DNA from: Naegleria gruberi
Lineage: Eukaryota
DNA: 64,000 nt
Assembly (NCBI GenBank): GCA_000004985.1
Contig: GG738904.1
Reading direction: 5' to 3' (one strand)
This document shows positions 3,448 to 58,354 of the stretch, one piece after another. The notes under the pieces were generated by a model that searched no databases, was not told the DNA's origin, and saw only the letters and a list, made by a program, of their open reading frames with translations. Made by a program: the position numbers and the translations under genes. Position 1 is the stretch's first letter. Each line of letters begins with the position of its first letter.

Positions 3448-5985
3448 ATGTTGAATATTAATTTCTCATCATTGTCACAGTCCGATAAAAATTATATTCT
3501 CGAGCAAATTAAATGGAATGATTGTTCGTGTTTGGAGAAAGTAAACGAAACTTTAAAGAAGGACCGAGAATTCGTTTTGGAAACTATTAAAAAACATGGA
3601 TCAGCACTCGAATATGCCGATGAATCCCTCAAGCAAGATAGAGAATTTATATTGACAGCTGTCAAAACGAATGGAAATTCATTTCGTTACATTGATGAAA
3701 AATTTAAAAAAGATCGAGAAATTGTTTTGGAGGGATTTAAAGAAAATTTATCTGCACTTGAATATGCTGATAAATCATTGAAAAAAGATCGAGATTTCAT
3801 GTTGACAGCTGTCAAACAAAATGGACTAGCTCTTCAACATGCGGATAAATTATTAAAAAAGGATCGGAAAATAGTATTGGAAGCTGTTAAGGAAAAGGCA
3901 TATGCTTTTAAATATGCCAATAAATCATTTACAAAGGATAGAGAATTTATGTTGGAGGCAATTGAATCAAATCCGTATGCATTTGGAAATGCCAATGTTT
4001 CGTTTAAAAAGGATCGACAATTCATGTTGGATGCTGTGAAGAGAAATGGACTAGCTCTTCACTATTATCAAGATGATTTATTTAGGAAAGATAGAGAAAT
4101 TGTATTGGAGGCAGTTAAAACAAATGGGAAAATACTCAAACATCTCAGCGAATCATTTAGGAAGGATCGAGAAGTGGTGTTTCAAGCTTTTCAGAATTGG
4201 AAAAAAGCACTGAAATATGCGAGTGCATCACTCAGGAATGACAAACTCTTTCTCTATTGGATTTCCAAGCATGATTTGAATACAGCTCGAGAATATTCAC
4301 CACACCTCGTTCAAATCATTGAGAATCACAGCAAATTGCAGACTAAACTGTCAACGAATATTATTGACATTTACTCGAAAAGTTTCAGTGATGAAAATGA
4401 ATTGTATTACTGTTTGGAGTTGCCTAAGAATAATCCAAAATCAAAGAGTACACTTTTCAATCTCAATCCAACCTATTCTACTGTATTCATTGAAAAATTA
4501 GTGATATTTCAAATATGGAAACGATTGACTGAATCAACAATTGATATTTTCTATTTGGAATCTCCAAATTACTATTTATTTTGTTTCAGATTGGAGAAAT
4601 TTTTAGAGGAAAATAGTACTCAACCAATTGGTTTGAAGGATTTGAAGAGAGTTGTGGAAACTATTTCATCCAAATTCGAAACATCACATTATAACAAGAA
4701 GGAAACCAGTCAGATACTTTACTTTTTTACAAAATGGACAGAAAGCGAGAAGACATTCAACAATTACAAACAAATATTATCAAAATATAATGAGCTACAT
4801 GGAGACTTGTCTAAAATATTCAGAGCTATGAATCAGTATTACAATTATTTCAGTAATGATTATGATTTTATTTCGATATTGGGACATGGAGGTGAAGGAG
4901 TGGTATTAAAGGTATTCCATAAATCGAGTAGGTCACTTAGAGCTGTTAAATTCAAATATAACACCGAGGAAAGCGAAGAATCTGGGAATGAATTACTGAA
5001 ATTATTGAGACGAAAAGATTTGACTGGAAAGATCAATTACTTTGATTGTGGAATGATACATAATCACCTCTATTCTGTCATGGAATTGGGCGAGGAATCT
5101 CTGGCAGATTACATATCGAGGAATTTTGAAATTTACATGAATCGAACTGCAAAATCTAAAGACAAACTGATAGAAATTCTTCAAATATTTATCAAAGTAT
5201 TGGAATCAGTCAAGTCCATACATGATCACAACATTTTACACAGAGATTTGGATCCACAAAATATTGTCAAAATTCAAGATGAGTACAAGATTATTGATTT
5301 TGAAACTTCAAAGGTTATCAAGACAGGAAACTCAATCACCATTGCTCGTGGAAAATATTCATACATGTCACCTGAAGTGTCACATGACAGTTACACAGAT
5401 GACATGTTAAAAAATGGTGATGAAATGAAACTAGCTCATAATATTGGAAACATTACAATTTCATGCGATTTATTCTCATTGGGATGTATTCTCTTAAAAT
5501 TACTAACCAATGTTCCATTACAATTGGATGAGCAATTTATTCATGATTCGGATATTTCAAAATATAATGATAATTTTACCTATTTTAATGTGTATGGAAA
5601 GTACTTCTTCACTGTCGTGACGACATCTGAAGGAGAAATGAAACTACACTATGCCATTGAAAAATTAATCAATAGCTCAATTATGGAGGAGTATGGAGTG
5701 AATCATTTATTGATTCGATGTATCATTACAATGATTCAAAGAGATTCTTCCAAGAGATTATCTTGTCGTGTGCATAAAACTACACTGGAGAGTGTGGTCA
5801 AGTTTTTGAAAGGAGAAAGCAAAGAATTGAAGGAGATTACTGATTATAAGGAAATTATATCACTGAAAAGCTATTCTCAATTGATTGAGGAAAATAAGAA
5901 ACTAAACGAAAATCAGAAAGCATTGGAGGAGAAGATTAAAATCTTGGAAGAGGAAATAAGGAAATGGAAACTAAATAGTCAATAA
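3448..5985 (+). CDS. DUF4116-like repeat protein fused to a divergent Ser/Thr protein kinase domain (845 aa)
   Basis: N-terminal half has at least seven ~37-aa repeats with consensus KKDREFVLEAVKxNGxALxYA (DUF4116-like). The C-terminal half has kinase subdomains: GHGGEGVV (Gly loop), RAVKF (VAIK lysine), HRDLDPQN (catalytic loop with K->D), DFE in place of DFG, YMSPE (APE). It ends in a coiled coil. Confidence 0.7.
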   Translation: MLNINFSSLSQSDKNYILEQIKWNDCSCLEKVNETLKKDREFVLETIKKHGSALEYADESLKQDREFILTAVKTNGNSFRYIDEKFKKDREIVLEGFKENLSALEYADKSLKKDRDFMLTAVKQNGLALQHADKLLKKDRKIVLEAVKEKAYAFKYANKSFTKDREFMLEAIESNPYAFGNANVSFKKDRQFMLDAVKRNGLALHYYQDDLFRKDREIVLEAVKTNGKILKHLSESFRKDREVVFQAFQNWKKALKYASASLRNDKLFLYWISKHDLNTAREYSPHLVQIIENHSKLQTKLSTNIIDIYSKSFSDENELYYCLELPKNNPKSKSTLFNLNPTYSTVFIEKLVIFQIWKRLTESTIDIFYLESPNYYLFCFRLEKFLEENSTQPIGLKDLKRVVETISSKFETSHYNKKETSQILYFFTKWTESEKTFNNYKQILSKYNELHGDLSKIFRAMNQYYNYFSNDYDFISILGHGGEGVVLKVFHKSSRSLRAVKFKYNTEESEESGNELLKLLRRKDLTGKINYFDCGMIHNHLYSVMELGEESLADYISRNFEIYMNRTAKSKDKLIEILQIFIKVLESVKSIHDHNILHRDLDPQNIVKIQDEYKIIDFETSKVIKTGNSITIARGKYSYMSPEVSHDSYTDDMLKNGDEMKLAHNIGNITISCDLFSLGCILLKLLTNVPLQLDEQFIHDSDISKYNDNFTYFNVYGKYFFTVVTTSEGEMKLHYAIEKLINSSIMEEYGVNHLLIRCIITMIQRDSSKRLSCRVHKTTLESVVKFLKGESKELKEITDYKEIISLKSYSQLIEENKKLNENQKALEEKIKILEEEIRKWKLNSQ

Positions 5986-6277
5986 GATTATAATATTTTC
6001 AAATTCCTTTAAACTTCAAAAAAGAGAAATTCCCTTAAAAATATCATTTTCTTAATCTTGATTCAAACCTTTTAAAACTTTCGAATATTTCACTAACATT
6101 ATCATGTTTAATACTTGGATTCTCATACGTTGTTTGGTAATTCCTCATATTTGAACCTATTTTAAACATAGCCTACTTTAACCAGTTATTTCAATTTGTT
6201 CTCAAATTACAAAAAATAACACAATCATAAACAAGAATTACAACAATTAGTATCAAGTTTGGATTTTGATTTGAAAA

Positions 6278-6880
6278 ATGTTAATAAAATCAGATATTTT
6301 AATAAAAGATGAAGGATATTGGAAACAAGATGAAAAAACCATCGAATCAATTACTGGAAAACGATTCAGAACAATTTACGAAATTCTAAGTGAAGAGGTG
6401 GATTTAAATTTGGATAATTATAATAGTGATCGACATATTTTGAGATCAAGAGTTGAAACCTTATATGAAAAGGCAGAGAATAAGGCAATGCCTTTGTGTT
6501 TCGTATTGGTAAACATTATTCGATACATTAAACAGTTGAATATTCTGGTTTGGGGAGACAAAACAAACCCCATCAAGCAACTAACATTCCTCTCCATGTT
6601 TGGAATCCCATCTGATGTGAGTGGAGTTACTCGAATCGAGGCAATTGATTCTGACAAGTGCAAAGTTTCACAAAATAGTTTCGTCTTGGAGGTACTATCC
6701 ACAAAGGTGATCAACAACTACAACATATACACCAATAGGCTTGTTAATCACCCAATATGTGAGAACTGGTACGATGGAATCAAAGTGAACAATTACACAT
6801 TTGTTGATTTGACATGTGAAGATTTTTATGTGGCATACAAGAAATCAATTCCTAAACTCATTTGCACCGTTCTATGGTGA
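6278..6880 (+). CDS. Hypothetical protein (200 aa); member of a small paralogous family with a second, disrupted copy at 27721-28311
   Basis: Intact ATG ORF. About 90% nucleotide identity to the inverted copy at 27721-28311. No known domain. Confidence 0.45.
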   Translation: MLIKSDILIKDEGYWKQDEKTIESITGKRFRTIYEILSEEVDLNLDNYNSDRHILRSRVETLYEKAENKAMPLCFVLVNIIRYIKQLNILVWGDKTNPIKQLTFLSMFGIPSDVSGVTRIEAIDSDKCKVSQNSFVLEVLSTKVINNYNIYTNRLVNHPICENWYDGIKVNNYTFVDLTCEDFYVAYKKSIPKLICTVLW

Positions 6881-7129
6881 GATAATCAACAACAATCATT
6901 CCTGGATTTCCATGGAATCAGTTTCTTATTTAGAATTCAGTTGCCCATTGATGATTTTAAAATAATTTATTGAACGTGTTGAAAATTGTTGATTATTTTT
7001 AACAAATCTGTTTTAACGTATTTGCTAAAGCCTTAATAATTCATCGCGAACTACTGCTAGTTTAAGAATTAATTTTTTAATTTTTATAAAAATTGATAAA
7101 GAGAATCATCAATTCATCATAATGGAAGA

Positions 7130-8365
7130 TTAATATTGACGTTCCACAGTTTGAATGCTCTTCCACAATGAACCCATCTGATTTCGTGATAATTGAAGGA
7201 AACCAATTCCAACTTGTTTCAGTGGTTTCATTTTACTAATGTAAATTAATCCTTCATCATTAATTCCATTGTAACTGACATCGAGATAGGTCAATTGATT
7301 CATTTTGTTGATGAACGTTAATGCTAGATTGTCAATTGCACTTCCACTGATATTAAGGAAGGTCAACTGGTCCAATTGACTCAATAATTCAACTATTTCA
7401 TTATTAATACCATTATAAGAAATATCTAGAAGTTGTAATTGTTTCAATTTGATAATATTCTTAGCTCCTGAATTACCAATTTTAGTATTGCAAATGTACA
7501 GATGTGTTAATTGAGTCATTTCACAAATATGTTTAACACCAGTTTCTCCAAGTTTAGTATACGAATCGCTCAATTGTTTCAACTGTTTCATTCCACTTAT
7601 AAACTTAGCTCCTTTAGATCCTATCTGATTATTATTAATTACTAAAACAGTCAATTCATCCAAATTACTGATATATTCAGCTGATTTATCACTAATCAAA
7701 TTCGAATAAATATTTAATGTCTTTAACTGCTTGAATGAACTAATTAATTTGACTTGTTCATCAGTAGTTTCATTACCTGTAATACAAAGATACGTCAATT
7801 TACTCAATTGACTCAAATATTCAACTCCCTCATATGTAATATTATTTTTTGAGCCAATTGAAAGTTTGGTCAACTGGCTCAATTTACTTAAATAATATAG
7901 ACTTTCATTTCCAAAATTATTGTAAGAATCAACATGAATATCGGTTAAATTATTCAATCCTGCAAGATATTTAGCTCCTTTCGAATCAATGGTTTCACTA
8001 CTTAAATAAACTTTCGTTAATTTTTTCATAGATTCGAATATTTCACAATCGAATCGATTCGGAAGTCTAAACTTGTCAAAAACTTGCAGATTTTCCACAT
8101 TTTCCAAAAATTGACCTTTCAATTTCGTATCTTTTCTAATTGTTAACGAATGTTTAATTCCATTTCGAATAACATTAAACCATTGTTTAGAAACTAGGGC
8201 GCATTTCATCACTAAAAATTTAAAATCATCATGAAAAGATAAAATTTCAAATAATTCGTCATTACTGAATAAAAATACTTTTTTAAACGGATCTTGTTTG
8301 GAATGAGAAAAGTCAACATTGCTATTAGAAACTGGTGGAAAATTGTTGTTGATCATATCACTCAT
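7130..8365 (-). CDS. F-box / leucine-rich repeat (ribonuclease-inhibitor type) protein
   Basis: N-terminal F-box-like segment LFEILSFHDDFKFLVMKCALVSKQWFNVI, followed by about eleven 24-28 aa LRR_RI repeats (LTxLxIxxNxIGxxGAKxI). Paralogous to 57143-58354. Confidence 0.7.
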   Translation of the reverse strand: MSDMINNNFPPVSNSNVDFSHSKQDPFKKVFLFSNDELFEILSFHDDFKFLVMKCALVSKQWFNVIRNGIKHSLTIRKDTKLKGQFLENVENLQVFDKFRLPNRFDCEIFESMKKLTKVYLSSETIDSKGAKYLAGLNNLTDIHVDSYNNFGNESLYYLSKLSQLTKLSIGSKNNITYEGVEYLSQLSKLTYLCITGNETTDEQVKLISSFKQLKTLNIYSNLISDKSAEYISNLDELTVLVINNNQIGSKGAKFISGMKQLKQLSDSYTKLGETGVKHICEMTQLTHLYICNTKIGNSGAKNIIKLKQLQLLDISYNGINNEIVELLSQLDQLTFLNISGSAIDNLALTFINKMNQLTYLDVSYNGINDEGLIYISKMKPLKQVGIGFLQLSRNQMGSLWKSIQTVERQY

Positions 8366-26304: not shown

Positions 26305-26354
26305 NNNNNNNNNNNNNNNNNNNNNNNNNNNNNNNNNNNNNNNNNNNNNNNNNN
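26305..26354. other. Assembly gap (50 N)
   Basis: Run of 50 n. A duplicated sequence ends exactly at its left edge. Confidence 0.99.
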
Positions 26355-26992: not shown

Positions 26993-27191
26993 TTTTTTTT
27001 ACAACACTTGACAGGGGAATTTAACAGTTTCGCTAGGTAATGTTTTGGTAAATCCAAAGTTGGTGTAATATTTTCAAAATCAAAAACCACAAGAACCAGT
27101 TCGATGTAGTATGTTGCCTCTTCATCATCACCTCTTTCAGGTACCTCAATTACATTTTATCTGATTAAGGTCTTGATATAAAAAATGTGCT

Positions 27192-27262
27192 CGTCTCGTG
27201 GTGTAATGGTAGCATAGTGGACTTTGAATCCATTGACGGAGGTTCGATTCCTCCCGAGACGG
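27192..27262 (+). tRNA. tRNA-Gln (anticodon TTG)
   Basis: Cloverleaf folded by hand: acceptor CGTCTCG/CGAGACG, D-arm TGGTGTAATGGTAGCA, anticodon stem GTGGA/TCCAT with loop CTTTGAA (TTG), T-arm GGAGG-TTCGATT-CCTCC, discriminator G. Close to canonical eukaryotic tRNA-Gln. Confidence 0.85.
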
Positions 27263-27294
27263 TAAACGTGGCGAGCCATTGAGATTTGCAAACT

Positions 27295-27344
27295 NNNNNN
27301 NNNNNNNNNNNNNNNNNNNNNNNNNNNNNNNNNNNNNNNNNNNN
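27295..27344. other. Assembly gap (50 N)
   Basis: Run of 50 n. A duplicated sequence begins exactly at its right edge. Confidence 0.99.
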
Positions 27345-27460
27345 TCTGAATTTCAATGAAATCTTTGGATAAACGTTTTAAAGCTCTGCTGTGTGGAGTT
27401 GCTGCTGTTGAATAGGAAGAATTTGACATTTTAATTGAAAGACAATTTGATGAAATTTAA
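27345..27460. repeat. Duplicate copy of the 5' end and 5' flank of the UBC-F-box gene (copy of 26184-26304)
   Basis: Near-identical to 26184-26304 (tctgaatttcaatgaaatctttggataaacgttttaaagctctgctgtgtggagttgctgctgttgaa...). The copy lacks the SNSSNS-encoding tandem repeat. It encodes MSNSSYSTAATPHSRALKRLSKDFIEIQ on the minus strand, then hits the gap. Confidence 0.7.
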
Positions 27461-27720
27461 AAGATTTTGATGGAATGTGGAGTCTGAGAAATCCGAATCT
27501 GTGTTTCGATTCAATTTTTTGTGAATGTTGATCGATTTTTGATTAGCTTGCAAATCGATTAAAAACTGATTTTTTTAGAGTTAAAAATAGAAGATCAAAA
27601 TTTTTCAACAGGTTCAATAAATTGTTTTAAAATTCATCAACTGATCAAATCATTTTAGAACCTTATTTTGAATTCTAAATAAGAAACTGATTCGAAATCC
27701 AAGGATTGTTGTTGATTATC

Positions 27721-28311
27721 TCACCATAGAACGGTGCAAATGAGTTTAGGAATTGATTTCTTACATGCCACATAAAAATCTTCACATGTCAAATCAACAA
27801 ATGAATAATTGTTAACTTGGATTCCATCAAAATAGTTATTCCACATTAGATGTTCAACATTCCTGTTGGTGTTATTTGTAAAGTTAAATGCAGATACTTC
27901 CAAGACGAAACTATTTTGTGAAACTTTGCACTTGTCAGAATCAATTGCCTAGATTCGAGTAACTCCACTCACATCAGAGGGGATTCCAAACATGGAGAGG
28001 AATGTTAGTTGCTTGATGGGGTTTGTTTTGTCTCCCCAAACCAGAATATTCAACTGTTTAATGTATCGAATAATGTTTACCAATACGAAACACAAAGGCA
28101 TTGCCTTATTCTCTGCCTTTTCATATAAAATTTCAACCCTTGATATCAAAATATGTCGATCACTATTATAATTATCCAAATTTAAATCCACCTCTTCAGT
28201 GAGAATTTCGTAAATTGTTCTGAATCGTTTTCCAGTAATTGATTCGATGGTTTTTTCATCTTGTTTCCAATATCCTTCATCTTTTATTAAAATATCGGCC
28301 TTGAGCAACAT
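27721..28311 (-). pseudogene. Disrupted paralogue of gene 6278-6880 (in-frame TAG, diverged 3' third)
   Basis: About 90% identical to 6278-6880 over the first 360 nt. GAG->TAG at about 27945 creates a stop (IEAIDSD context), after which the two small track ORFs (27949-28311, 27721-27903) continue the homology. Confidence 0.5.
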
Positions 28312-28656
28312 TTTTCAAATCAAAATCCAAACTTGATAGGTGCAGTTCTTGTTTATGATTGTGTTATTTTTTGTAATTTTTTTGTGATTTTGATTGGGAT
28401 TGAGGTCTTAATAAACAATTTATAATGAATCATCTTATGGATGGAATGAAAAGAAAAGACTGATTGTTGGATAAAGTCAATTTGAAAATTTTTACAACTT
28501 AATGTGAGGTATGAAAAAAATTGCATGCCTGCCGAGGCTTCCAAAAAAAGAAATATAGATAATTTTTGAAAAATAAAAACGCCACTACCTTGATATGGAT
28601 GTCTAGTAGGGATCTATGAAAAATTGGGCAAAAATATTAAGAATTAAAAATTACTA

Positions 28657-28727
28657 CTCGAGTGCCGGGAATTGAACCCGGGTCGCCAGAGTGACAGTCT
28701 GGAATGCTACCACTATACCACACCCGA
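28657..28727 (-). tRNA. tRNA-Asp (anticodon GTC)
   Basis: Reverse complement TCGGGTGTGGTATAGTGGTAGCATTCCAGACTGTCACTCTGGCGACCCGGGTTCAATTCCCGGCACTCGAG. Anticodon stem CCAGA/TCTGG with loop CTGTCAC, T-arm CCGGG-TTCAATT-CCCGG. Matches eukaryotic tRNA-Asp. Confidence 0.85.
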
Positions 28728-29160: not shown

Positions 29161-29407
29161 TGTATTGGTCACTCTAGTTGTTGTAATGCCAGGTTTTGAG
29201 GCTTAGAATTTAACGAAAATGGTTTGCCTTCTTGATGTGTTTTGAAGCTATGGGAGTAAACTACAATTTCCTTTTTGCTTAAAATTTAATCTCAAAACGC
29301 GGCATATTTTCAATTAATTATCAAAAACCAAAAGAACCAGTTCAGTCTACATAAATTGTTGCTTCAATTAAATATTATGATTAAGGTGTTGATTTAGTGA
29401 ATGTGCT

Positions 29408-29478
29408 CGTCTCGTGGTGTAATGGTAGCATAGTGGACTTTGAATCCATTGACGGAGGTTCGATTCCTCCCGAGACGG
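29408..29478 (+). tRNA. tRNA-Gln (anticodon TTG), second copy
   Basis: Identical 71-nt mature sequence to 27192-27262. Upstream and downstream flanks are also similar (aaacgtggcgagcc.ttgagattt). Confidence 0.85.
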
Positions 29479-29626
29479 TAAACGTGGCGAGCCCTTGAGA
29501 TTTTTCTTATTGAACTTTTTCTGTTTAACAACATGCAATACGCCTCAACAGAGATAGAACTCACTACTCAGTTCACCTATTGGTTACTGCTGCTATTAAG
29601 CAATTGAAGGAATAAGTTAATAATAA

Positions 29627-35399: not shown

Positions 35400-37454
35400 A
35401 TGATTCGCTCGGATTTGTTTTATACAGAGGAACAAACACCATCCTCTTCTATCAATATGGTGGATGATGATGTATTATTTTCATCAGCAGCAACAGACTC
35501 GTCATCTCATCATCAGCCTCCTAATCAGGACCCTAATGCTCCAATCGATATGAATATTTGGATGCTATCCGTTGNNNNNNNNNNNNNNNNNNNNNNNNNN
35601 NNNNNNNNNNNNNNNNNNNNNNNNAATTATTGTTAGGTATTTAGTGTTGGGTAAAAAACATTGATTAATTTATTCGATCCTGAGGAATACTTTTATTTGA
35701 GATTGTTTATCTGGGTTACTTATAATTTATGTTTTATAATGTTTGCACTTGTGTTGACTGCTCTAGTTGCTCCATCTGCTGAAGGATCTGGTTTGGCAGG
35801 TATTAAAGCTATTTTGAATGGTGTCAGAGGTTTAAAGGATGTTCTAAGTATGAAGACAATGATTGTGAAATATTTATCATTACCTGCAGTCCTTACAGCT
35901 GGTTTATATATCGGTAAAATGGGTCCTTCCATTCACATTGTCACTTGTGCTGCTAAGAATTTACTGAAATTTAGATTATTCGAGTCCATAAGAAAAACCA
36001 AAACTCTGAAACAAGAAATGATTGTATGTGGTATTGCTGTCGGTTGTGCAGCTAACGATGGTGCTGTCGTGGGAGGTGTATTGTTTGGAGCAGAGTTAGT
36101 TGGTACCTATTATTCTTTGAGAAACTATTTCAAGAGTTTTTATGCAGCTTTTATTGCCTGCATGACTTCTCGTTTATTGCACAGTGCTGTCAATTTGAAT
36201 ATCAAACCATTCTTGACATGGAATGTTAAGATTGTTCCTCCATCTTTCACTCTTCCAGAATTATTTTTCATGCTTTTTGTTGCCATTGTAATGTCTTTTG
36301 TTGGTATTGCAGTAGTCTTTGTCAATGAACAATTGCTTGTTTTGAGAGATAAATATGGTAAATTGCATCTTGGACCTTTCAAGTTTGCCAAGTATGCCAC
36401 TAACAAATTGGTAATTTTAACAGAAAACAGAATTATTTTCACAATTATTATTACTCTCGTTACTAGTTTCCTTTCATTCCCTCAAATGATTGGTAAATAT
36501 ATGAGTATTGGTGGTGTGCCTATTTTCGAAGAATTATTAATGGCAAAACCTTTAACAACAGTGAATGGCGCTAAGGGAGAATGGATTCAAGGAAATATTT
36601 CAGAAGTATTTATTACAATTTCTATATTTATTACTGTCAGATACATTTTGGCAATTCTTACAACAGTTTTGCCTGTTTCTGGTGGTTCATATTTGCAATT
36701 GTTGATTATTGGAGCTTCATTTGGTAGACTTGTAGGTGAAGGTCTTGCCTTTATTTTACCTGATGGTTTTAGTCCAAACCATCCGATTGTTCCAGCCAGT
36801 TATGGTCTTGTTGCTGCTGCTGCTTTGACTAGTTCACAAACGCAGGCCTTCAGTTCTGTATTTATTCTGCTAGAATTAACAGGTCATGGTGTTCACTTAC
36901 CTGCATTGGGAGCATCCTATATTGGAGTTGTTATTTCCAGATGGTTGTCTTACAGTGCCTATGACTTTGTTATCAAGTTTAGAAAATGGCCAGCTGTCCT
37001 TGAATCAACAACTGACTCTGACGATATTAGAGTTAAATACGTCATGCAATATGTTGATAGTTTGCCAATTTTGGAAGAAAAGGCAAGCTTGAGAAAGATT
37101 GGAGAATTTTTGGAAAAGCCAGATTTGGCCAAGACTATTCCAATTGTTAATAATAAGAGTGATTTACTTCTTGTTGGTTGTGTCAATACTAAGAAATTAC
37201 AAGATTATTACAATACTATGAAACCAACTCTTGAAGGCAATCCTGACTATGATACAGAAATTGAAATTGAAAAGAATACTTGTCCAATTACCATTTCTGA
37301 AGATACACCTCTCGTTTTAGCTCACTTACTCTTCTCCAAATTGAATTTGGATGACGTGTTCGTTGTTTGGAGAGGTCGTTTAATTGGTCAAGTTCAAAAG
37401 TCTAGTATTATTGCTGAGCTTACTGATAGAAATGCTGGTTTTGGTGATGCTTAA
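35400..37454 (+). CDS. CLC-family voltage-gated chloride channel/transporter with C-terminal CBS pair; interrupted by assembly gap 35575-35624
   Basis: CLC motifs GSGLAGIKAILNG (GSGIP-type), GKMGPSIHI (GKEGP-type), GVLFGAE and PVSGGSY, plus C-terminal CBS-like segments. The N-terminal ORF (35400-35574) is separated from the main ORF by the 50-N gap, so the exon structure there is unresolved. Confidence 0.7.
35575..35624. other. Assembly gap (50 N) inside the ClC gene
   Basis: Run of 50 n. Confidence 0.99.
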
Positions 37455-48846: not shown

Positions 48847-50883
48847 TTACAAAAAAGGATTGTCTTGGTTAAGGTAGTAATAAGTATCAAAAATAGTAGA
48901 TTGAAAGTGATCTGAGGGTAAACATGGAGGACCAATTGAGCTCCAACTGTAATAATGTTCATGCTCTCCAGAATCACAATAGAAACTCATTGACTTGGTA
49001 GCTCTCATAAATGTGAGTAGGTCTTGTTTCCTCTCCTCTGTTGCATAATTGAAAGCAGACCTCCTTGTAGAGACAGCAAGGCAAATCATTTGTTCATCAT
49101 TTCTAATTTCCTCTGGTGCATATTGTAACAATGTTCCATCGTACCTTAATGCAAATTTGTAAAATTCTCTATTGTTAAGATAGTAATCATCATTGTCAAC
49201 CTCATTAGTTTGTGTAATTGTGTCAGATATTAGGCCTAAATGGCCAACCTCAGAAAAGCTCTCATCTCCATCATAATCCAAAAACTCTGGCTCGTTTGGA
49301 TAATAACTAGAGCAAGGATCCACTAGTAATCTTCTGATAACTTGGACATATCTGTTAAATAATTGGTTAGGGAATGTAATATCTATAATATCAATGCCAC
49401 CTGCTAAAATATTACAAATATCCTTATCATTTAACAGTTCTAGATTTGCAAATTGGATAGCCCTAATATTCCTTCGTATAGCCACTAATACCACCTCTTT
49501 ATCCTTCTTCAATTCATCAGATGTATATTTCAAACTCATTGGAGATGTTTGTAAAGCTCTCATTACAATTTCCTTGTTGGCCGTAATTTTAGGCGAGCAA
49601 AATCTCAATAAATAACCACATCGACAAACTAGTCGTTCTCTTTCCAATTCATCATCACTACTCTTGTTGAACAAATCAATAAACTCATCTCTATTCCAAA
49701 TATTCTCATATCTTGAAGGTTCTTGTTCAATACTTTGTTTTTTCTGGGTAGTATTAAACTCTCTCAGGGCTGGATGTGATTGCACATGATCTGGTAACCA
49801 TGAGAAAATATCCGCATTATGTTTTAAAACATCTAATATCAGTTTGATATCTCCTCCAAATAGTGTAGTATCATTCAAAATGAAATTACTTAATTTGAAC
49901 ATTGGATGAATAGTAGAATCCCAAACTTTTCCTCCAATCTTCAATTGTTGAATTGTTATATCCCTATCTTGTTCAAACTCAACTGGTATTCTATACTTTT
50001 GAAATACTGATAAACCAACAATGCTTACATTTTGTAAGCACTTTAGGATTAGATCTTTTGTAATAAGATCTTTTTTGAGATGGATCCAATCCAATCCTCT
50101 TTCCACACAACTAATCACAAGATCCTCTTGGGTTATGAACTTTTTAAATGCATACAATGCCTTTGGGAATTTTGAAATGATTCTTTTCATGAACGGTTCA
50201 CTTTCCAAAAGACGATTCGAAACAGAATGAAGCAACACGTAGTAAATATCAGAGGGTTTGTAGATTCTCTCAACCACACTCAAACAAAATGCTTCATCAT
50301 CCAATGCTTCAGGTGATACTTGAGAAGATAAAGAACAATTAGCCATTAGACAATGTGCAATAATTTCAGGATCTTTCCTAAATACAGAACTATTCACCAT
50401 GAAACTAGCAATCGAATCAGCATTAGATTTAACAGCTGCAAGAGCTATTTCTCTATCCACCTTGAACTTTTCAGGTAAAAAAGCAAATTCACTTCCACAA
50501 TTCCTAACACATTCCAATAAAACTTGTCTATCATCATAATCGAAAGGTAAATTCCTAATTATTCCTGGTTTTCCAAATTTAGCCAATTTAAGAAGTACTA
50601 ATCGGAAGGGCACACAAGAATTAATTGTATTCCCGTGAAAACTATTGATAGTTGCCAATTTTTCTTCCTTTAATTTATCCAAAAACCACAACAAAGCCCT
50701 CTCCAACTCAAATTGCCTGTCGTTTGCTTGTAACATTCGCCTTCCGAGCTTTTCCTTTAGTAATTGGGCATGAAAATTATTCTTGCTGAGAACAGTTTCC
50801 TTTGAAAATGGTAACACAACAACGTCTATATCTTGAAGTAATTGAAACATTTTTTTTAAAAACAGGGCAATAAAGTTCATCAT
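48847..50883 (-). CDS. DUF4116-like repeat protein (678 aa), no kinase domain
   Basis: At least three repeats with the same consensus as the 3448 gene (KVDREIALAAVKSNADSIASF, KKDKEVVLVAIRRNIRAIQFA, RNDEQMICLAVSTRRSAFNYA). Confidence 0.5.
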   Translation of the reverse strand: MMNFIALFLKKMFQLLQDIDVVVLPFSKETVLSKNNFHAQLLKEKLGRRMLQANDRQFELERALLWFLDKLKEEKLATINSFHGNTINSCVPFRLVLLKLAKFGKPGIIRNLPFDYDDRQVLLECVRNCGSEFAFLPEKFKVDREIALAAVKSNADSIASFMVNSSVFRKDPEIIAHCLMANCSLSSQVSPEALDDEAFCLSVVERIYKPSDIYYVLLHSVSNRLLESEPFMKRIISKFPKALYAFKKFITQEDLVISCVERGLDWIHLKKDLITKDLILKCLQNVSIVGLSVFQKYRIPVEFEQDRDITIQQLKIGGKVWDSTIHPMFKLSNFILNDTTLFGGDIKLILDVLKHNADIFSWLPDHVQSHPALREFNTTQKKQSIEQEPSRYENIWNRDEFIDLFNKSSDDELERERLVCRCGYLLRFCSPKITANKEIVMRALQTSPMSLKYTSDELKKDKEVVLVAIRRNIRAIQFANLELLNDKDICNILAGGIDIIDITFPNQLFNRYVQVIRRLLVDPCSSYYPNEPEFLDYDGDESFSEVGHLGLISDTITQTNEVDNDDYYLNNREFYKFALRYDGTLLQYAPEEIRNDEQMICLAVSTRRSAFNYATEERKQDLLTFMRATKSMSFYCDSGEHEHYYSWSSIGPPCLPSDHFQSTIFDTYYYLNQDNPFL

Positions 50884-51230
50884 CTAGGAAAATTTCATCC
50901 TTTCCAATAGATTGTTGATTTCATCAATCCTCAATTTAGCAAGGTCACTCAAACCCTAGTAGCTTCACAGACAGGAAATAGGTCTGGTTCTCTATCACCA
51001 ACAATGAGATTGAGCTCTCAAGTTGATAATCCAAGAAAATTGACAAAGAAGCAATAATTTGTGAACTGTACATGAATGGACCTAGATATTCTTCTGGTTG
51101 CCAACTCAATCAAACCAGAAGTACAACACTAACAACATTTTATTATTGATATGTACCACTTCCCAAAGAAGTATTAGTGTTGTTTACCACTAACAACAAG
51201 TTTCATTTGTTTTGCACAATTTTGAATATG

Positions 51231-51310
51231 ATGTAACAAATACACGTAGATGTCACCAAATCAAGCATACCTAAAATGGTGCTACATGGCTGGTGAGTTG
51301 GGAACCCCAG
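51231..51310. repeat. Conserved ~80-bp element, copy A (partner at 52868-52950)
   Basis: atgtaacaaatacacgtagatgt.acc.aatcaagcatacctaaaa..tggtg.tacat.gctggtgagttgggaaccccag shared at about 90% identity with copy B, in the same orientation. Contains an internal inverted repeat (atgtaaca ... tgttacat). Confidence 0.6.
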
Positions 51311-51392
51311 CAGATTTTACCTACACTCCAAACACCAGAAACCAGAAAGTTGTTGAAAAAGTATTAAACAAGTACCAGAGTTCCATTTAAAT

Positions 51393-52793
51393 TCATTTGC
51401 TGTTTTTATTTTTGTGTTCCTTAAATATAGTGAACAACTGAGGTAGTTCTGTATATGCATATTTCATAATTGGACGGTGCCAGGTGAAAAGTGATTCATC
51501 ATTTGTGGATTGACCAAGAATATTTTGCTCAACAAGTTTTGAACAAATTTTCCTATGTTGAGCTGTTGATGGAAAAAATGAATTATTTCCAGCAATGAGA
51601 TCCAAGACGTCAACTATTTCACCTCCTTCGTTATCATAGATTATCCCTATTATGTTTGCTAATTCTATAGCTTCTGTTCGAATCATTCCATCAACAACTT
51701 TCTTAATGTCTTCAGCTGGTACTTGAATGTGACCATTAACAATATCGGAAATAATTTCATTATGAGGTTTTGATTTCAGAGAAGGGTGATGATCTTGCAT
51801 AATGGGGATCAATTCTTTAAGTACACTATAAATCTGGCCAAAGTGGCCTCCTAATTTCTTGATATCATCATTTCTCAGGAATGGATATTGCTCTAATTCA
51901 GTTTGGGTGGTGTAAGAAAACGTGTACTTCTTCAGTCTAGATGTGTGTCCAGATAATTTCCTTAAATCTGTGAAGGTGGAAAAGTTGCTAGAGACATGGA
52001 CACCAGTGGCCAATTGCTCCTCAACGAATTGAAGTAAGTTACCGGCTATTATTTTACAATCGGGGTCGTTGGCTATATAGTCACTTACAACAATAATAGA
52101 AACAGGAGTACCATAGTTAGCTTCCTTCTTTAGTTGTTGCAAAATGTTTTTCAGGGCAACCATTATTCTGGCAATTGGAACGTCAGATTCGTCTGTTCTT
52201 CTTTGGCTGATCCCAAGTGCAAGAAGAATGTTTTGGTATGGCATATTCGCTCTCAATGGAATGTATATTACATTTCTTCTATTTTCCAGTGCTTTCTCAA
52301 CAGACATTGATTTTCCAGAATTAGATGGACCACTGATATATGCCAACTGATTAACGCAGTCGTATGAAAACATTGCACCAAGTACTTCTGATCCTGCTTT
52401 AGGCAACAATTTCATACCATTAATCATTGGTGTAGTTGGTATGAATGGTTGTGCGAGCTTTGATCTAATTTCCTTCTCAAGAGGCAAATACTCGTTGTTT
52501 TGATTATCTTCATGAATACCTGTAAGAATGTTATAAGTTTGATAAGCACTCAAGACGGAAAAGATAATGGCCAGAGAACCTGACCAAGTGATCCATATGT
52601 TTGTGAATTTCTTCCAATTGCTTTCTTTTCCTTCTTCGTTGGACCCTTGGTCAAAGTTTCGCAAGTACCGTGTCATATGAAAATGTTTGCTAGGTGTAGG
52701 TTGTTTAAAGGTGAAAAATTGTGGTGCACAACACTTGCAATTGTTGACGAATGTTACAAGTCTCACTAGTCTTAATCTGCCCAATATTTTCAT
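51393..52793 (-). CDS. Hypothetical P-loop NTPase with N-terminal transmembrane segment (466 aa)
   Basis: Walker A GPSNSGKS, a downstream hhhhD Walker-B-like IIVVSDY, and an N-terminal hydrophobic helix. No closer family assignment from sequence alone. Confidence 0.5.
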   Translation of the reverse strand: MKILGRLRLVRLVTFVNNCKCCAPQFFTFKQPTPSKHFHMTRYLRNFDQGSNEEGKESNWKKFTNIWITWSGSLAIIFSVLSAYQTYNILTGIHEDNQNNEYLPLEKEIRSKLAQPFIPTTPMINGMKLLPKAGSEVLGAMFSYDCVNQLAYISGPSNSGKSMSVEKALENRRNVIYIPLRANMPYQNILLALGISQRRTDESDVPIARIMVALKNILQQLKKEANYGTPVSIIVVSDYIANDPDCKIIAGNLLQFVEEQLATGVHVSSNFSTFTDLRKLSGHTSRLKKYTFSYTTQTELEQYPFLRNDDIKKLGGHFGQIYSVLKELIPIMQDHHPSLKSKPHNEIISDIVNGHIQVPAEDIKKVVDGMIRTEAIELANIIGIIYDNEGGEIVDVLDLIAGNNSFFPSTAQHRKICSKLVEQNILGQSTNDESLFTWHRPIMKYAYTELPQLFTIFKEHKNKNSK

Positions 52794-52867
52794 TTTTTTT
52801 TATTTTTTTCACAAGTGTTAGAGCACAAGATAAAGTACTTTTTGCTGGAAGCTTCTTAAAAACGACT

Positions 52868-52950
52868 ATGTAACAAATACACGTAGATGTAACCTAATCA
52901 AGCATACCTAAAAAAATGGTGTTACATAGCTGGTGAGTTGGGAACCCCAG
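52868..52950. repeat. Conserved ~80-bp element, copy B
   Basis: See copy A. Lies about 75 bp upstream of the P-loop gene start codon. Confidence 0.6.
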
Positions 52951-53286
52951 ATATTCTTTACATTAATGTCCTCTTACAATATTGATTTAGTTATAAGCGC
53001 ATTGTAATCTCAACCATCTAACCAAAGTTTCTCAAATACGAACAAGCTACGTAATTCTTCGAACGCAAATTTTACAATAAATTACAGTTCTTTACAAAGA
53101 CCTAAGGAGGTTCCCAAAATGCATGATTCTCATATGTTCCTTCTCCTGTACTGTCAGAAATTAAATTGACAGTACCCAAACAAACACAGCACAATCCAGA
53201 GTAACGATAACCAATATCCATATTTATCCAATATCTGCCCGTTTCTCCTCAAACAACAACCAGTTCTAAAACACATTTAAGGAAGC

Positions 53287-57142: not shown

Positions 57143-58354
57143 TCATTTTTCTAATGTATTGCATTGTTTCTTCTCAACAACAAGATAACTAAGATGATGA
57201 TTCATTGTTTCACTCAAAAGTTTAGCACCATCTTCCATTTGAATTCCAGTATTGTAAATTGAAAGAGAAACTAATTGATATAGTCCACAGAGGTGTTTAA
57301 TACCTTCATCAGTAATATAATTTCCATTAAGATTAAGATTGGTCAATTGTTTCATTTCACCAATAAATTCAGCTCCTTCCTCACGAATATTATTCGAACG
57401 AATGTCAAGATTTGTTAAATATTTCATTTCACTAATATATTTAGCACCTCGATTACTTAGATAATTTTTACCAATATCAAGCTTAATCAATTGTTTCATT
57501 TCACTAATGTATTTAGCACCATCATCCCCAATTATATTTTTACGAATATTAAGATTGGTCAACTGAGTCATTTCACTCACTAATTTTGCTCCCTCAACTC
57601 GAATATTATTATTACTAATATTGAGATCTACCAATTGATGCATTCTCATTAAATGTTCAATGCCTTGATCACCAATACGATTTCCACCAACATTAAGACT
57701 GGTCAATTGTTTCAACGCACCAATGAATTTAACTCCTCTAACACCGATTTCATTATAATAAATATTGAGATGTGTAAGTTGTCTGATTCCATTACAGATG
57801 AATTTGGATCCATCTTCTCCTATCTTATTATGAGAAATGTCAAGATATGTCAATTGTTTCATTTTGCTAAGATATTTGGCTCCTTCTGAACTAATCCTAT
57901 TATACGAAACATTGAGCTTTGTTAATTTTGTGAGATTGCTAATATAAGAAACGCCTATATCACCAATATTATTCATTTTCATGTCAAGATCTACCAATCG
58001 ATTCTTCATCATTGCAGAAAATATTTTACAATCAAAAATAGTTTCGTTTCGTTTCTCCACTATTAATATTTCAATATTTTGAAGTAATTGACCTTTCAGT
58101 TTGTTATCATTTCTGCAAGTTAAAGAAAATCTTGATCTTTCCGAAATGACATTCAACCACTGTTTAGAAATTAGAGTACAATTTAGAATAAATTTAACAT
58201 CAAGAAATGATAAAATTTCAAAAATTGAATCATCTGAAAAGATGAGCAGAGAGTGTTTCAATTTTCGTTTAACTTTCGAATAGGATGTACTCGATGATTT
58301 GCTTGTTGTCTTTATGCGCATTTTTCTTTTAAATCTTTCTATTCGAAAGTGCAA
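57143..58354 (-). CDS. F-box / leucine-rich repeat (RNI-type) protein, paralogue of 7130-8365
   Basis: F-box-like IFEILSFLDVKFILNCTLISKQWLNVI, then about eleven LRR_RI units (LTxLNIxxNxIGxxGAKxIxEMKQ). Alignable with the 7130-8365 protein over the N-terminal 120 aa. Confidence 0.7.
   Translation of the reverse strand: MHFRIERFKRKMRIKTTSKSSSTSYSKVKRKLKHSLLIFSDDSIFEILSFLDVKFILNCTLISKQWLNVISERSRFSLTCRNDNKLKGQLLQNIEILIVEKRNETIFDCKIFSAMMKNRLVDLDMKMNNIGDIGVSYISNLTKLTKLNVSYNRISSEGAKYLSKMKQLTYLDISHNKIGEDGSKFICNGIRQLTHLNIYYNEIGVRGVKFIGALKQLTSLNVGGNRIGDQGIEHLMRMHQLVDLNISNNNIRVEGAKLVSEMTQLTNLNIRKNIIGDDGAKYISEMKQLIKLDIGKNYLSNRGAKYISEMKYLTNLDIRSNNIREEGAEFIGEMKQLTNLNLNGNYITDEGIKHLCGLYQLVSLSIYNTGIQMEDGAKLLSETMNHHLSYLVVEKKQCNTLEK

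Follow-up and report, generated by a model that had tools for sequence, protein, structure and literature searches.

The locus described here holds a single-exon gene bracketed by two closely similar sequences of about 80 bp. It lies in a 64-kb window, by which we mean the whole stretch of DNA analyzed, and this window is Naegleria gruberi nuclear DNA. The main features are the following:

51231..51310, no strand assigned: copy A, 80 nt, GC 43.8%, 82 nt past the ATPase stop codon, 348 nt upstream of the DUF4116 ORF
52868..52950, no strand assigned: copy B, 83 nt, GC 38.6%, 74 nt upstream of the ATPase ATG
51393..52793, minus strand: NAEGRDRAFT_73390 (XP_002671643.1), the ATPase gene, 466 aa, single exon, bracketed by A and B
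51311..52867, no strand assigned: segment between the copies, 1557 bp, made up of the ATPase ORF and its flanks, 82 nt on the 3′ side and 74 nt on the 5′ side
48850..50883, minus strand: DUF4116 gene, single exon, downstream of copy A and on the same strand as the ATPase gene

The two copies lie where a preliminary description of this DNA placed them and, as it stated, share one orientation; their start-to-start spacing is 1637 nt. That description also gave the distances to the flanking genes correctly, among them about 350 bp from copy A to the DUF4116 gene (348 nt to the first ATG of the ORF, 381 nt to the annotated start at 50850). Copy B occupies the divergent spacer common to the ATPase gene and gene 53287 on the plus strand. 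An upstream DUF4116 exon reaching the repeat is ruled out: the annotated model, P0019, starts at 50850 and has a single exon. A giant-virus origin of the region (low GC, DUF4116, F-box/LRR genes, tRNAs) was also considered and rejected, since the ATPase ORF is an N. gruberi protein at 100%. The neighboring genes are of host type, for example those for a radial-spoke head protein and a peptide deformylase.

The label of P-loop ATPase, given to the bracketed gene from its sequence, was confirmed by a family alignment that preserves the Walker A (GPSxxGKS) and Walker B motifs, and both GPSxxGKS and hhhh[SDE]D persist across 17 relatives. Pfam returned AAA_22 alone, below threshold (E = 0.029). 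The AlphaFold model (pLDDT 77.6) has ORC/Cdc6, MalT, and Apaf-1/CED-4 as its top Foldseek matches, with E values of 1e-7 to 1e-5, and the protein has the Walker A/B motifs and ASCE ATPase fold of AAA+/STAND-like P-loop NTPases. NAEGRDRAFT_73390 is thus an ORC/Cdc6-/STAND-like P-loop NTPase, and it is lineage-restricted. The protein carries a hydrophobic N-terminal helix. Its relatives number 18 among 1.84 billion representatives, a tiny and patchy family of ORC/STAND-like NTPases that are apparently anchored in the membrane.

Comparing the window with itself by BLAST aligned the two copies at 91.6% identity over 83 columns (E = 3e-26), in agreement with the roughly 90% first reported. They differ by four substitutions (alignment columns 24, 28, 55, and 61) and one 3-nt indel in an A run; with the indel set aside, identity is 76/80, or 95%. 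Both edges of the repeat are sharp, similarity ends abruptly, and the flanks have no common homology. The terminal 23 and 22 nt are invariant, and these end blocks are each found twice where shuffles predict 0. All five differences lie within the central 38 of the 83 columns, a clustering whose probability, calculated post hoc, is (38/83)^5 = 0.02. Together, the central clustering and the perfect ends hint at constraint on the ends of the element. The 22-nt block is as follows:

51289..51310, plus strand: conserved end block GCTGGTGAGTTGGGAACCCCAG, with the same sequence at 52929-52950

This block could form a short hairpin (CTGG...CCAG) that closes flush with the end of the element. Both copies are richer in GC than 89-97% of 80-nt non-ORF windows; tRNA genes make up half of the GC-rich non-ORF islands in the window. 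We ruled out an assembly artifact: both copies lie in contiguous sequence, the nearest N-gap is distant (35575-35624), and the copies are not identical to each other. A coding exon is also ruled out, each reading frame being blocked in at least one copy.

The element has an internal order, which is clearest in copy B:

52868..52874, plus strand: first direct copy of the heptamer ATGTAAC in B, also the 5′ arm of an 8-bp inverted repeat (counterpart in A, 51231-51237)
52887..52893, plus strand: second direct copy of ATGTAAC in B (counterpart in A, 51250-51256, the degenerate ATGTCAC)
52920..52927, plus strand: TGTTACAT, the inverted heptamer and 3′ stem arm in B (counterpart in A, 51280-51287, TGCTACAT, with one mismatch)

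Across the window ATGTAAC occurs 10 times against 9.3 expected, and three of these occurrences lie within 60 nt of copy B. A heptamer that is not enriched overall but is gathered three times in 60 nt points to an order that is real and repeat-like, and the grouping resembles clusters of putative binding sites. The element also has an ACGT core (TACACGTAG) and a GGGAACCCC block. The inverted repeat ATGTAACA/TGTTACAT noticed earlier does exist, but its loop, put at about 55 nt, measures 41 nt in A and 44 nt in B. Nor does each copy have the stem in full, as had been proposed: it is perfect in B, where flanking bases extend it to 10 bp, but imperfect in A, where one position pairs as A.C (plus strand) or G.U (minus strand).

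A stem with conserved ends could belong to a structured RNA, one of the explanations offered at the outset. The two copies would then be paralogous genes encoding a small RNA, undescribed so far and about 80 nt long, more likely transcribed from the minus strand, with the conserved edges as the RNA ends. Such an RNA would fold into a hairpin at its 5′ end (CUGGGGUU...ACCAG), and the 8-bp stem AUGUARCA/UGUUACAU would close the domain after it. Several observations are consistent with it. The conserved block starts and stops flush with both possible minus-strand helices, and the substitution in the closing stem reads G.U versus A-U on the minus strand and A.C on the plus. The ends are invariant, with the differences central, and the element is GC-rich for noncoding DNA, like the three tRNAs of the window. 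Paralogous small-RNA genes are often clustered.

Known signatures of RNA genes are, however, absent from both copies. A Rfam scan of the whole window at the gathering threshold found three tRNAs only, all away from the elements; a scan of 51100-53100 at E ≤ 10 gave no match covering either element, and the one weak match, to snR48, scores 26 bits where the gathering score is 60 and stops 10 nt inside copy B. ARAGORN called no tRNA at either element. The minimum free energies of the exact elements do not differ from those of shuffles (z = −0.26, +0.36, −1.47, and +0.47). RNAalifold finds no compensatory pair inside the element, where two copies give little power; the one change of pairing is the G.U/A-U in the closing stem. 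Neither copy preserves the best internal stem of the other: CACCA/UGGUG, the upper stem of A, is short of two pairs in B with nothing compensatory, and B's AUGUAAC/GUUACAU stem has a mismatch in A. An internal T4/T7 run on the minus strand would stop Pol III, the flanks share no promoter, and the window's tRNA-Gln duplicates show 100% identity over the RNA, unlike copies A and B.

Searches for particular RNA classes gave the same answer. For box C/D snoRNAs, UGAUGA and CUGA are absent from both strands of both copies. (An ATGATGT string occurs in the nonconserved flank of copy A only.) For box H/ACA RNAs, the single-hairpin type of Euglenozoa among them, the ACA on the minus strand is buried in the 8-bp stem, and an H box is missing. 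No A box (TRGCNNAGTGG) of a tRNA or tRNA-derived SINE was found, and the B box (GGTTCGANNCC) is best approximated by GGTTCCCAACT, which lacks R57 and A58. A hammerhead or other self-cleaving ribozyme was rejected; CUGGUGAG resembles CUGAUGAG, but there is no GAAA, helix III, or Rfam match. The small guide and spliceosomal RNAs of Discoba (single-hairpin H/ACA-like and spliced-leader) are comparable to the element in their length of about 80 nt, in an ACA or AGA near the end, and in a GUAUG/Sm-like motif, here seen in one copy. The element differs from them in that its boxes are not single-stranded as required, and in having no conserved structure, covariation, or covariance-model match. With no Rfam or tRNA match, folding at shuffle level, no compensatory change, and stems broken between the copies, the structured-RNA candidate is weakened, and we consider a pair of small-RNA genes unlikely. 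Its specific form, a Naegleria-specific minus-strand RNA of about 80 nt with the 5′ hairpin and the 8-bp-stem domain, appears a little more doubtful still.

The most exciting version of the small-RNA reading, if it were true, would be a spliced-leader-like RNA in a heterolobosean. The gene would lie on the minus strand, with a 5′ exon of about 40 nt (CUGGGG...CCAUUUUAG), a GUAUGC donor, and the Sm-like GAUUUGG. The donor-like AG|GUAUGC is found in both copies, and copy A has the motifs in the order exon, AG|GUAUG donor, and U-rich, G-flanked site. Naegleria is related to Euglenozoa, which use spliced leaders (PMC11613528). In copy B, however, the Sm-like site is broken (GAUUAGG), and two substitutions and a 3-nt indel separate the putative exons of the copies; a leader exon is normally invariant. 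The window holds two copies and no tandem array, and neither matches a Rfam spliced-leader family. To our knowledge, trans-splicing is unreported in Naegleria despite EST and RNA-seq data. We regard this version as extremely improbable.

The preliminary description had seen no other copy in the window, and blastn-short, nhmmer --max, and a covariance model found none either. An inverted partial third copy at 51096-51145 (nhmmer E = 4.9, 13-nt inverted match) was rejected as chance-level: 10% of shuffles attain its local alignment score of 21, and other places in the window beat it. An exact-word scan of IMG/VR with the end blocks produced no match. For JGI metagenomes a 21-mer gave no match and a 19-mer two; for GTDB genomes a 21-mer gave none and an 18-mer 19. 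In both collections similarity ended at the seed, and the 19-mer and 18-mer counts equal chance expectation. A pseudo-protein built from all stop-free frames of the element overlapped none of 5.8 billion proteins, N. gruberi's included. The sequence strings of the element were matched in none of 8 million papers, nor were the gene identifiers matched in a literature search.

These searches bear on the idea that the copies are two members of a genome-wide family of short nonautonomous mobile elements in N. gruberi, brought close together by chance, for example by local hopping. Sharp, identical ends with a more variable interior fit such a family, and the heptamers, direct and inverted, inside the element recall the subterminal binding sites of DNA transposons. 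Unclassified repeats are numerous in N. gruberi (PMC12344493). Against this, no third copy exists in the 64 kb, the translated copy overlaps no predicted protein, the viral, metagenome, and prokaryote collections gave no match or seed-only matches, and two independent insertions 1.6 kb apart would be improbable if the family were sparse. Transposon signatures are also absent. Terminal inverted repeats are missing: ATGTAACAAATAC at the 5′ end is unlike the reverse complement of the 3′ end, CTGGGGTTCCCAAC. The element's inverted repeat is an internal one, at positions 1-8 and 53-60 of 83, unlike that of a MITE or DNA transposon. The check for target-site duplications proposed earlier was negative: none flanks either copy (AATATG/CAGATT around A, ACGACT/ATATTC around B). 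Neither copy has a poly-A or simple-repeat tail or A/B boxes. MITEs and miniature LTR elements (TRIM, retrozymes) are likewise small, with conserved ends, an internal inverted repeat, or direct repeats around an interior. The features that define them (terminal inverted repeats, target-site duplication, primer-binding site, polypurine tract, and a ribozyme matching Rfam) are lacking here, and the interior is an ordinary host-type gene. We judge membership in a mobile family to be quite improbable. A whole-genome family with conserved ends, if one were to emerge, would add a new short mobile element or a new class of RNA to a poorly annotated protist lineage.

The bracketing itself raises another possibility, put forward in the preliminary description: the copies may be direct repeats around an inserted gene. 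In this scenario the 1557-bp ATPase segment (51311-52867) entered a 763-bp divergent spacer, once single, that ran from the DUF4116 gene to gene 53287. Staggered-break repair or a replication template switch would have doubled 80 bp of the target, leaving the DUF4116 gene and gene 53287 with one promoter-side element each. The copies share orientation and bracket exactly one intact single-exon gene with UTR-sized flanks (74 and 82 nt). The spacer before insertion can be rebuilt as 336+80+347 bp, a plausible size for the N. gruberi genome. The small and patchy distribution of the ATPase family is also in line with insertion, as is the position of the gene, which is not syntenic with its homologues (homologue L001 adjoins a rhodanese gene). 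However, a surviving local copy must fall in an adjacent spacer, so the bracketing of one gene is unsurprising. The ATPase gene is compositionally ordinary (GC3 of 0.323 versus 0.274 ± 0.042), and related organisms have homologues of about 50% identity whose loci contain neither the element nor flanking repeats; the gene is therefore not obviously foreign. The unit has no paralogous copies, a word-index search with the ATPase matching, apart from the N. gruberi protein itself, a single homologue from a metagenome. We know of no mobile element that produces 80-bp target duplications.

Particular forms of insertion do not fit the locus either. For an LTR element, TRIM, or retrozyme, TG..CA can be read one base inside each element end, but the target duplication is unmatched (TATGA versus GATAT), no TGG of a primer-binding site follows either candidate 5′ copy, no hammerhead is present, and the interior holds a host-type NTPase gene, unlike that of an LTR element. 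A retrogene with a long target duplication is ruled out, no poly-A following the 3′ flank. Tandem duplication of element plus gene with later loss of one gene was also rejected: tblastn found no second ATPase copy or remnant elsewhere in the window, and the sequences downstream of the copies are not similar. Insertion is a possible history of the locus, although on balance an unlikely one. An empty site in a strain comparison would make it a clean case of gene insertion with a long target duplication.

Simple local duplication, the fallback explanation of the preliminary description, fits the available evidence best. We tentatively favor it, with somewhat less than even confidence: the pair may be the relic of a DNA-level duplication of an intergenic, promoter-side segment. 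A piece of about 80 bp would have been copied once to a site 1.6 kb off, probably by templated synthesis during break repair, which copies one defined patch and would leave no flanking homology, target-site duplication, or inverted terminal repeats. The window contains other local duplicates of similar age, at 87-93% identity, which makes small duplications a common background here. Templated filler or patch insertions, made by synthesis-dependent strand annealing or polymerase-theta end joining, are likewise short stretches copied from a nearby template, with sharp edges, two copies, a noncoding landing site, and no inverted terminal repeats or target-site duplication. They differ in their typical size, a few to a few tens of bases versus 80 here, and in the junction microhomology expected of them, which is not seen; the junctions of copy A show ATG|ATG and CAG|CAG doublets. 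Templated repair patches are usually shorter than 80 nt, which counts against this route. The invariant ends, their coincidence with the ends of two possible minus-strand helices, and the high GC of the element also weigh against a simple duplication. The polarity of the heptamers suggests that B lies nearer the ancestral sequence, with decay at two of them in A. The sequence itself demonstrates that the segment is duplicated with defined edges and ordered heptamers and that RNA and transposon signatures are lacking; we infer the repair mechanism, the direction of copying, and any regulatory role. As found, the duplication matters little, small spacer duplications being a common by-product of genome repair.

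Under local duplication, the element would yield no structured RNA, and any action would be as double-stranded DNA. The best reading is that it is either neutral or a protein-binding module. Three heptamers, the ACGT core, and the GGGAACCCC block, placed 5′ of two tandem same-strand genes, resemble a cis-regulatory module, and the element could be a promoter module shared by the ATPase and DUF4116 genes, another of the explanations first proposed. Homotypic clusters of transcription factor sites offer a parallel, with direct and inverted heptamers and the core packed into 60 bp on the 5′ side of genes and oriented alike toward both; they differ in that the distances to the start codons are unequal here, 74 versus 348 nt.

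Whatever its origin, a pair of direct repeats around one gene could have a passive consequence. Same-orientation intergenic repeats bracketing a gene could recombine and delete or circularize it, as in Leishmania, another discoban protist with such repeats around genes. The Leishmania repeats are SIDER-derived, that is, of retroposon origin, about 500 bp long, and present in thousands, whereas the Naegleria element measures 80 bp, has two known copies, and shows no feature of a retroposon. In Leishmania the repeats drive gene amplification or deletion by recombination. If the copies do recombine, removing or amplifying the NTPase gene, the locus would parallel this repeat-driven change in copy number. 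A side result of the analysis is the description of the bracketed gene itself, NAEGRDRAFT_73390.

Two near-identical segments of about 80 bp lie in the same orientation on either side of a single minus-strand gene, as the preliminary description had reported. Comparing the window with itself, we recovered this pair at 91.6% identity with gap columns counted (E=3e-26), or 95% over aligned bases. The two copies and the gene between them are as follows.

51231-51310: copy A, 80 nt, same orientation as copy B
51393-52793, minus strand: NAEGRDRAFT_73390 (EFC38899.1, XP_002671643.1), 466 aa, on a 297-kb scaffold
52868-52950: copy B, 83 nt, same orientation as copy A

The reported spacings were also correct: copy A lies 82 nt past the ATPase stop and 348 nt upstream of the DUF4116 ORF, and copy B 74 nt before the ATPase ATG. 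The interval from A to B holds one gene and nothing else. Four substitutions (alignment columns 24, 28, 55, and 61) separate the copies, along with an A-run that differs in length by 3 nt; the initial 23 nt and the terminal 22 nt are identical. The window has exactly two occurrences of each end block, and shuffles have none. Past the element boundaries, similarity between the two loci drops to the level of random sequence. A third copy was not found in the 64 kb by blastn-short, nhmmer --max, or a covariance model of the consensus structure on the minus strand, which upholds the earlier claim of no other copy in the window. A weak match at 51096-51145, considered as an inverted partial third copy, was not significant. 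The junctions of copy A (51228-51236 and 51305-51313) carry trinucleotide doublets, ATG/ATG on the left and CAG/CAG on the right, that are missing at copy B and may be due to chance.

With a GC content of about 33%, and with neighboring ORFs (a DUF4116 protein, DEAD-box helicase, radial-spoke-head-like, F-box/LRR, and UBC-F-box proteins, and peptide deformylase) consistent with a compact nuclear genome, the window is nuclear eukaryotic sequence, and we therefore applied eukaryotic rules to all interpretation. The translation of 51393-52793 is identical over its full length to database protein P0001, "predicted protein [Naegleria gruberi]." A giant-virus origin of the window was considered and is rejected in view of this match and the neighboring genes. 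Pfam gave no family above threshold. Seventeen relatives share the Walker A (GPSxxGKS), Walker B, and SGHxxRL motifs, and an AlphaFold model from the 17-sequence alignment (pLDDT 77.6) matched ORC/Cdc6, MalT, and Apaf-1/CED-4 in Foldseek (E 1e-7 to 1e-5). The conserved Walker motifs and fold matches bear out the P-loop NTPase label given earlier, and because of these matches, the protein is predicted to have an AAA+/STAND-like fold after a hydrophobic N-terminal helix. A search of 1.84 billion representatives returned 18 matches, most of them metagenome fragments, which makes the family very small.

One proposed explanation was that the repeats are the ends of an inserted unit. We considered this in the form of an 80-bp target duplication made when a 1,557-bp gene segment was inserted, and regard it as unlikely. 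The gene looks native; its composition is ordinary (GC3 0.323 versus 0.274 ± 0.042), and no remnant of a second NTPase gene copy was found in the window. To our knowledge, target duplications of 80 bp are not produced by any known mobile element, and a local copy that survived would in any case have had to end up in a neighboring spacer. Homologues of about 50% identity on three metagenome/NCBI contigs (L001, L002, and L024) lack both the element and flanking repeats. On two of these, the NTPase is split into two ORFs of 102 and 258 aa about 50 nt apart, suggesting a short intron or a frameshift.

L001, 416-724 and 775-1551: split NTPase ORFs
L002, 475-783 and 834-1610: split NTPase ORFs

A rhodanese gene follows this metagenomic NTPase, and the N. 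gruberi locus is therefore not syntenic with it.

The element itself also lacks transposon hallmarks. Its ends are not inverted repeats of one another, and the suggested check for target-site duplications found none around A, B, or the pair. A poly-A or simple-repeat tail is missing, as are a polypurine tract and a TGG primer-binding site after either candidate 5' copy, and Rfam shows no ribozyme at the element. Exact-word scans with three element blocks had no match in IMG/VR and yielded only chance seeds in JGI metagenomes and GTDB genomes. A composite of all open frames of the element matched nothing among 5.8 billion predicted proteins, N. gruberi included, and a literature search with the element sequence and gene identifiers found no mention. 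Judged from this window and these viral, metagenome, and prokaryote collections, membership in an interspersed repeat family seems improbable.

A small RNA gene present twice had also been suggested. Its sole favorable point is an orderly minus-strand fold in RNAalifold, a 5' hairpin followed by a domain closed by an 8-bp stem, in which the ends of the two helices coincide with the edges of the conserved block and one closing-stem substitution gives G.U versus A-U (A.C at the same plus-strand position). However, no substitutions between A and B are compensatory. The best internal stem of A (CACCA/UGGUG) loses two pairs in B, and that of B (AUGUAAC/GUUACAU) has one mismatch and one wobble in A. 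The inverted repeat noted earlier, ATGTAACA/TGTTACAT, is indeed present but is perfect only in B, and its loop measures 41 nt in A and 44 nt in B instead of about 55. Folding energies of the exact elements are at the level of dinucleotide shuffles (plus strand, z -0.26 and +0.36; minus strand, z -1.47 and +0.47), with a best z of -2.1 when short flanks are added. Rfam had no match at either element at gathering thresholds or at E<=10, and ARAGORN called only three tRNAs, all elsewhere in the window. C/D boxes are absent, the ACA triplet falls within a stem, the minus strand holds an internal T4/T7 run, which would stop Pol III, and the flanks of A and B share no common promoter. By contrast, duplicated tRNA-Gln genes in the window are identical over the whole RNA. 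Small RNA genes are thus a doubtful reading of the pair. A spliced-leader-like RNA from the minus strand (40-nt exon, AG/GUAUGC, GAUUUGG) is highly improbable; in copy B the Sm-like site reads GAUUAGG and the "exon" differs.

Two copies close together, sharply bounded and free of RNA or transposon hallmarks, fit a DNA-level local duplication of an 80-bp intergenic segment. We tentatively favor, at somewhat less than even odds, a local duplication in which the segment would have been copied as a patch into a neighboring spacer, whether or not it has a regulatory role. We prefer this to insertion because of the native-looking gene, the lack of 80-bp target duplications by known mobile elements, and the expected landing in an adjacent spacer. 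The probability left over after this and the readings above goes to explanations outside those considered. We regard the pair as real but ordinary, unless genome-wide copy number, transcripts, or strain comparison indicate more.

The anatomy of the element bears on a possible regulatory role, raised earlier as a shared promoter module. The heptamer ATGTAAC is not overrepresented in the window (10 observed, 9.3 expected), yet the first 60 nt of copy B hold three copies, direct at 1-7 and 20-26 plus one inverted. In copy A, the second (ATGTCAC) and third (GCTACAT; minus strand, ATGTAGC) are each one base off, accounting for two of the four substitutions, so copy B seems closer to the ancestral sequence. 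TACACGTAG, containing an ACGT core, sits between the direct heptamers, and the final 22 nt, GCTGGTGAGTTGGGAACCCCAG, could form a small hairpin. The probability that all five differences avoid the perfectly conserved ends is (38/83)^5 = 0.02, calculated post hoc. Judged from sequence, the heptamer cluster, ACGT core, conserved ends, and like orientation on the 5' side of two tandem genes leave some scope for a DNA-level function and would be in keeping with a small protein-binding module.

The element is GC-rich for local noncoding DNA: copy A (43.8%) ranks in the top 2.6% and copy B (38.6%) in the top 11% of non-ORF 80-nt windows (mean, 30.9%). Two other GC-rich (>=45%) non-ORF islands, both without an Rfam match, are 50938-51022, which shares the spacer with copy A upstream of the DUF4116 gene, and 35482-35566, which adjoins an assembly gap and is probably part of the following ORF. 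The copy A spacer has many small repeats. A perfect 10-bp inverted repeat, ACAACACTAA/TTAGTGTTGT (51123-51132/51174-51183, 41-nt loop), is found 50-100 nt away from copy A, and by direct reading CACTAACAACA occurs twice close to it.

The window contains further small duplicates at 87-93% identity, some near assembly gaps and tRNA genes.

26305-26354: 50-N assembly gap
27295-27344: 50-N assembly gap
35575-35624: 50-N assembly gap
27191-27263: tRNA-Gln(TTG)
28657-28727, minus strand: tRNA-Asp(GTC), between the two tRNA-Gln genes
29407-29479: tRNA-Gln(TTG)

In the tRNA-Gln pair, identity covers the tRNA and extends about 25 nt into the 3' flank; the 5' flanks are decaying. Colinear patches (26475-26651/28988-29151, 87.6%; 27146-27287/29364-29503, 93%) suggest a degraded tandem duplication of about 1-2 kb. 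Segment 26183-26303, just before the first gap, is repeated at 91% identity in 27345-27457, directly after the second; given this match across the gaps, part of the apparent 26-29.5 kb duplication may be a scaffolding or haplotype artifact. An 825-bp inverted repeat (87.5% identity; 27580-28379 versus 6204-7003, 20 kb apart) overlaps ORFs 6278-6880(+) and 27949-28311(-), both without a Pfam match, and may represent either a repeated gene or an unclassified element. Two DUF4116 proteins are encoded, at 3448-5985(+) and 48847-50883(-), one fused to a protein kinase domain, and F-box/LRR paralogues at 7130-8365(-) and 57143-58354(-) are about 70% identical in DNA sequence along short stretches.
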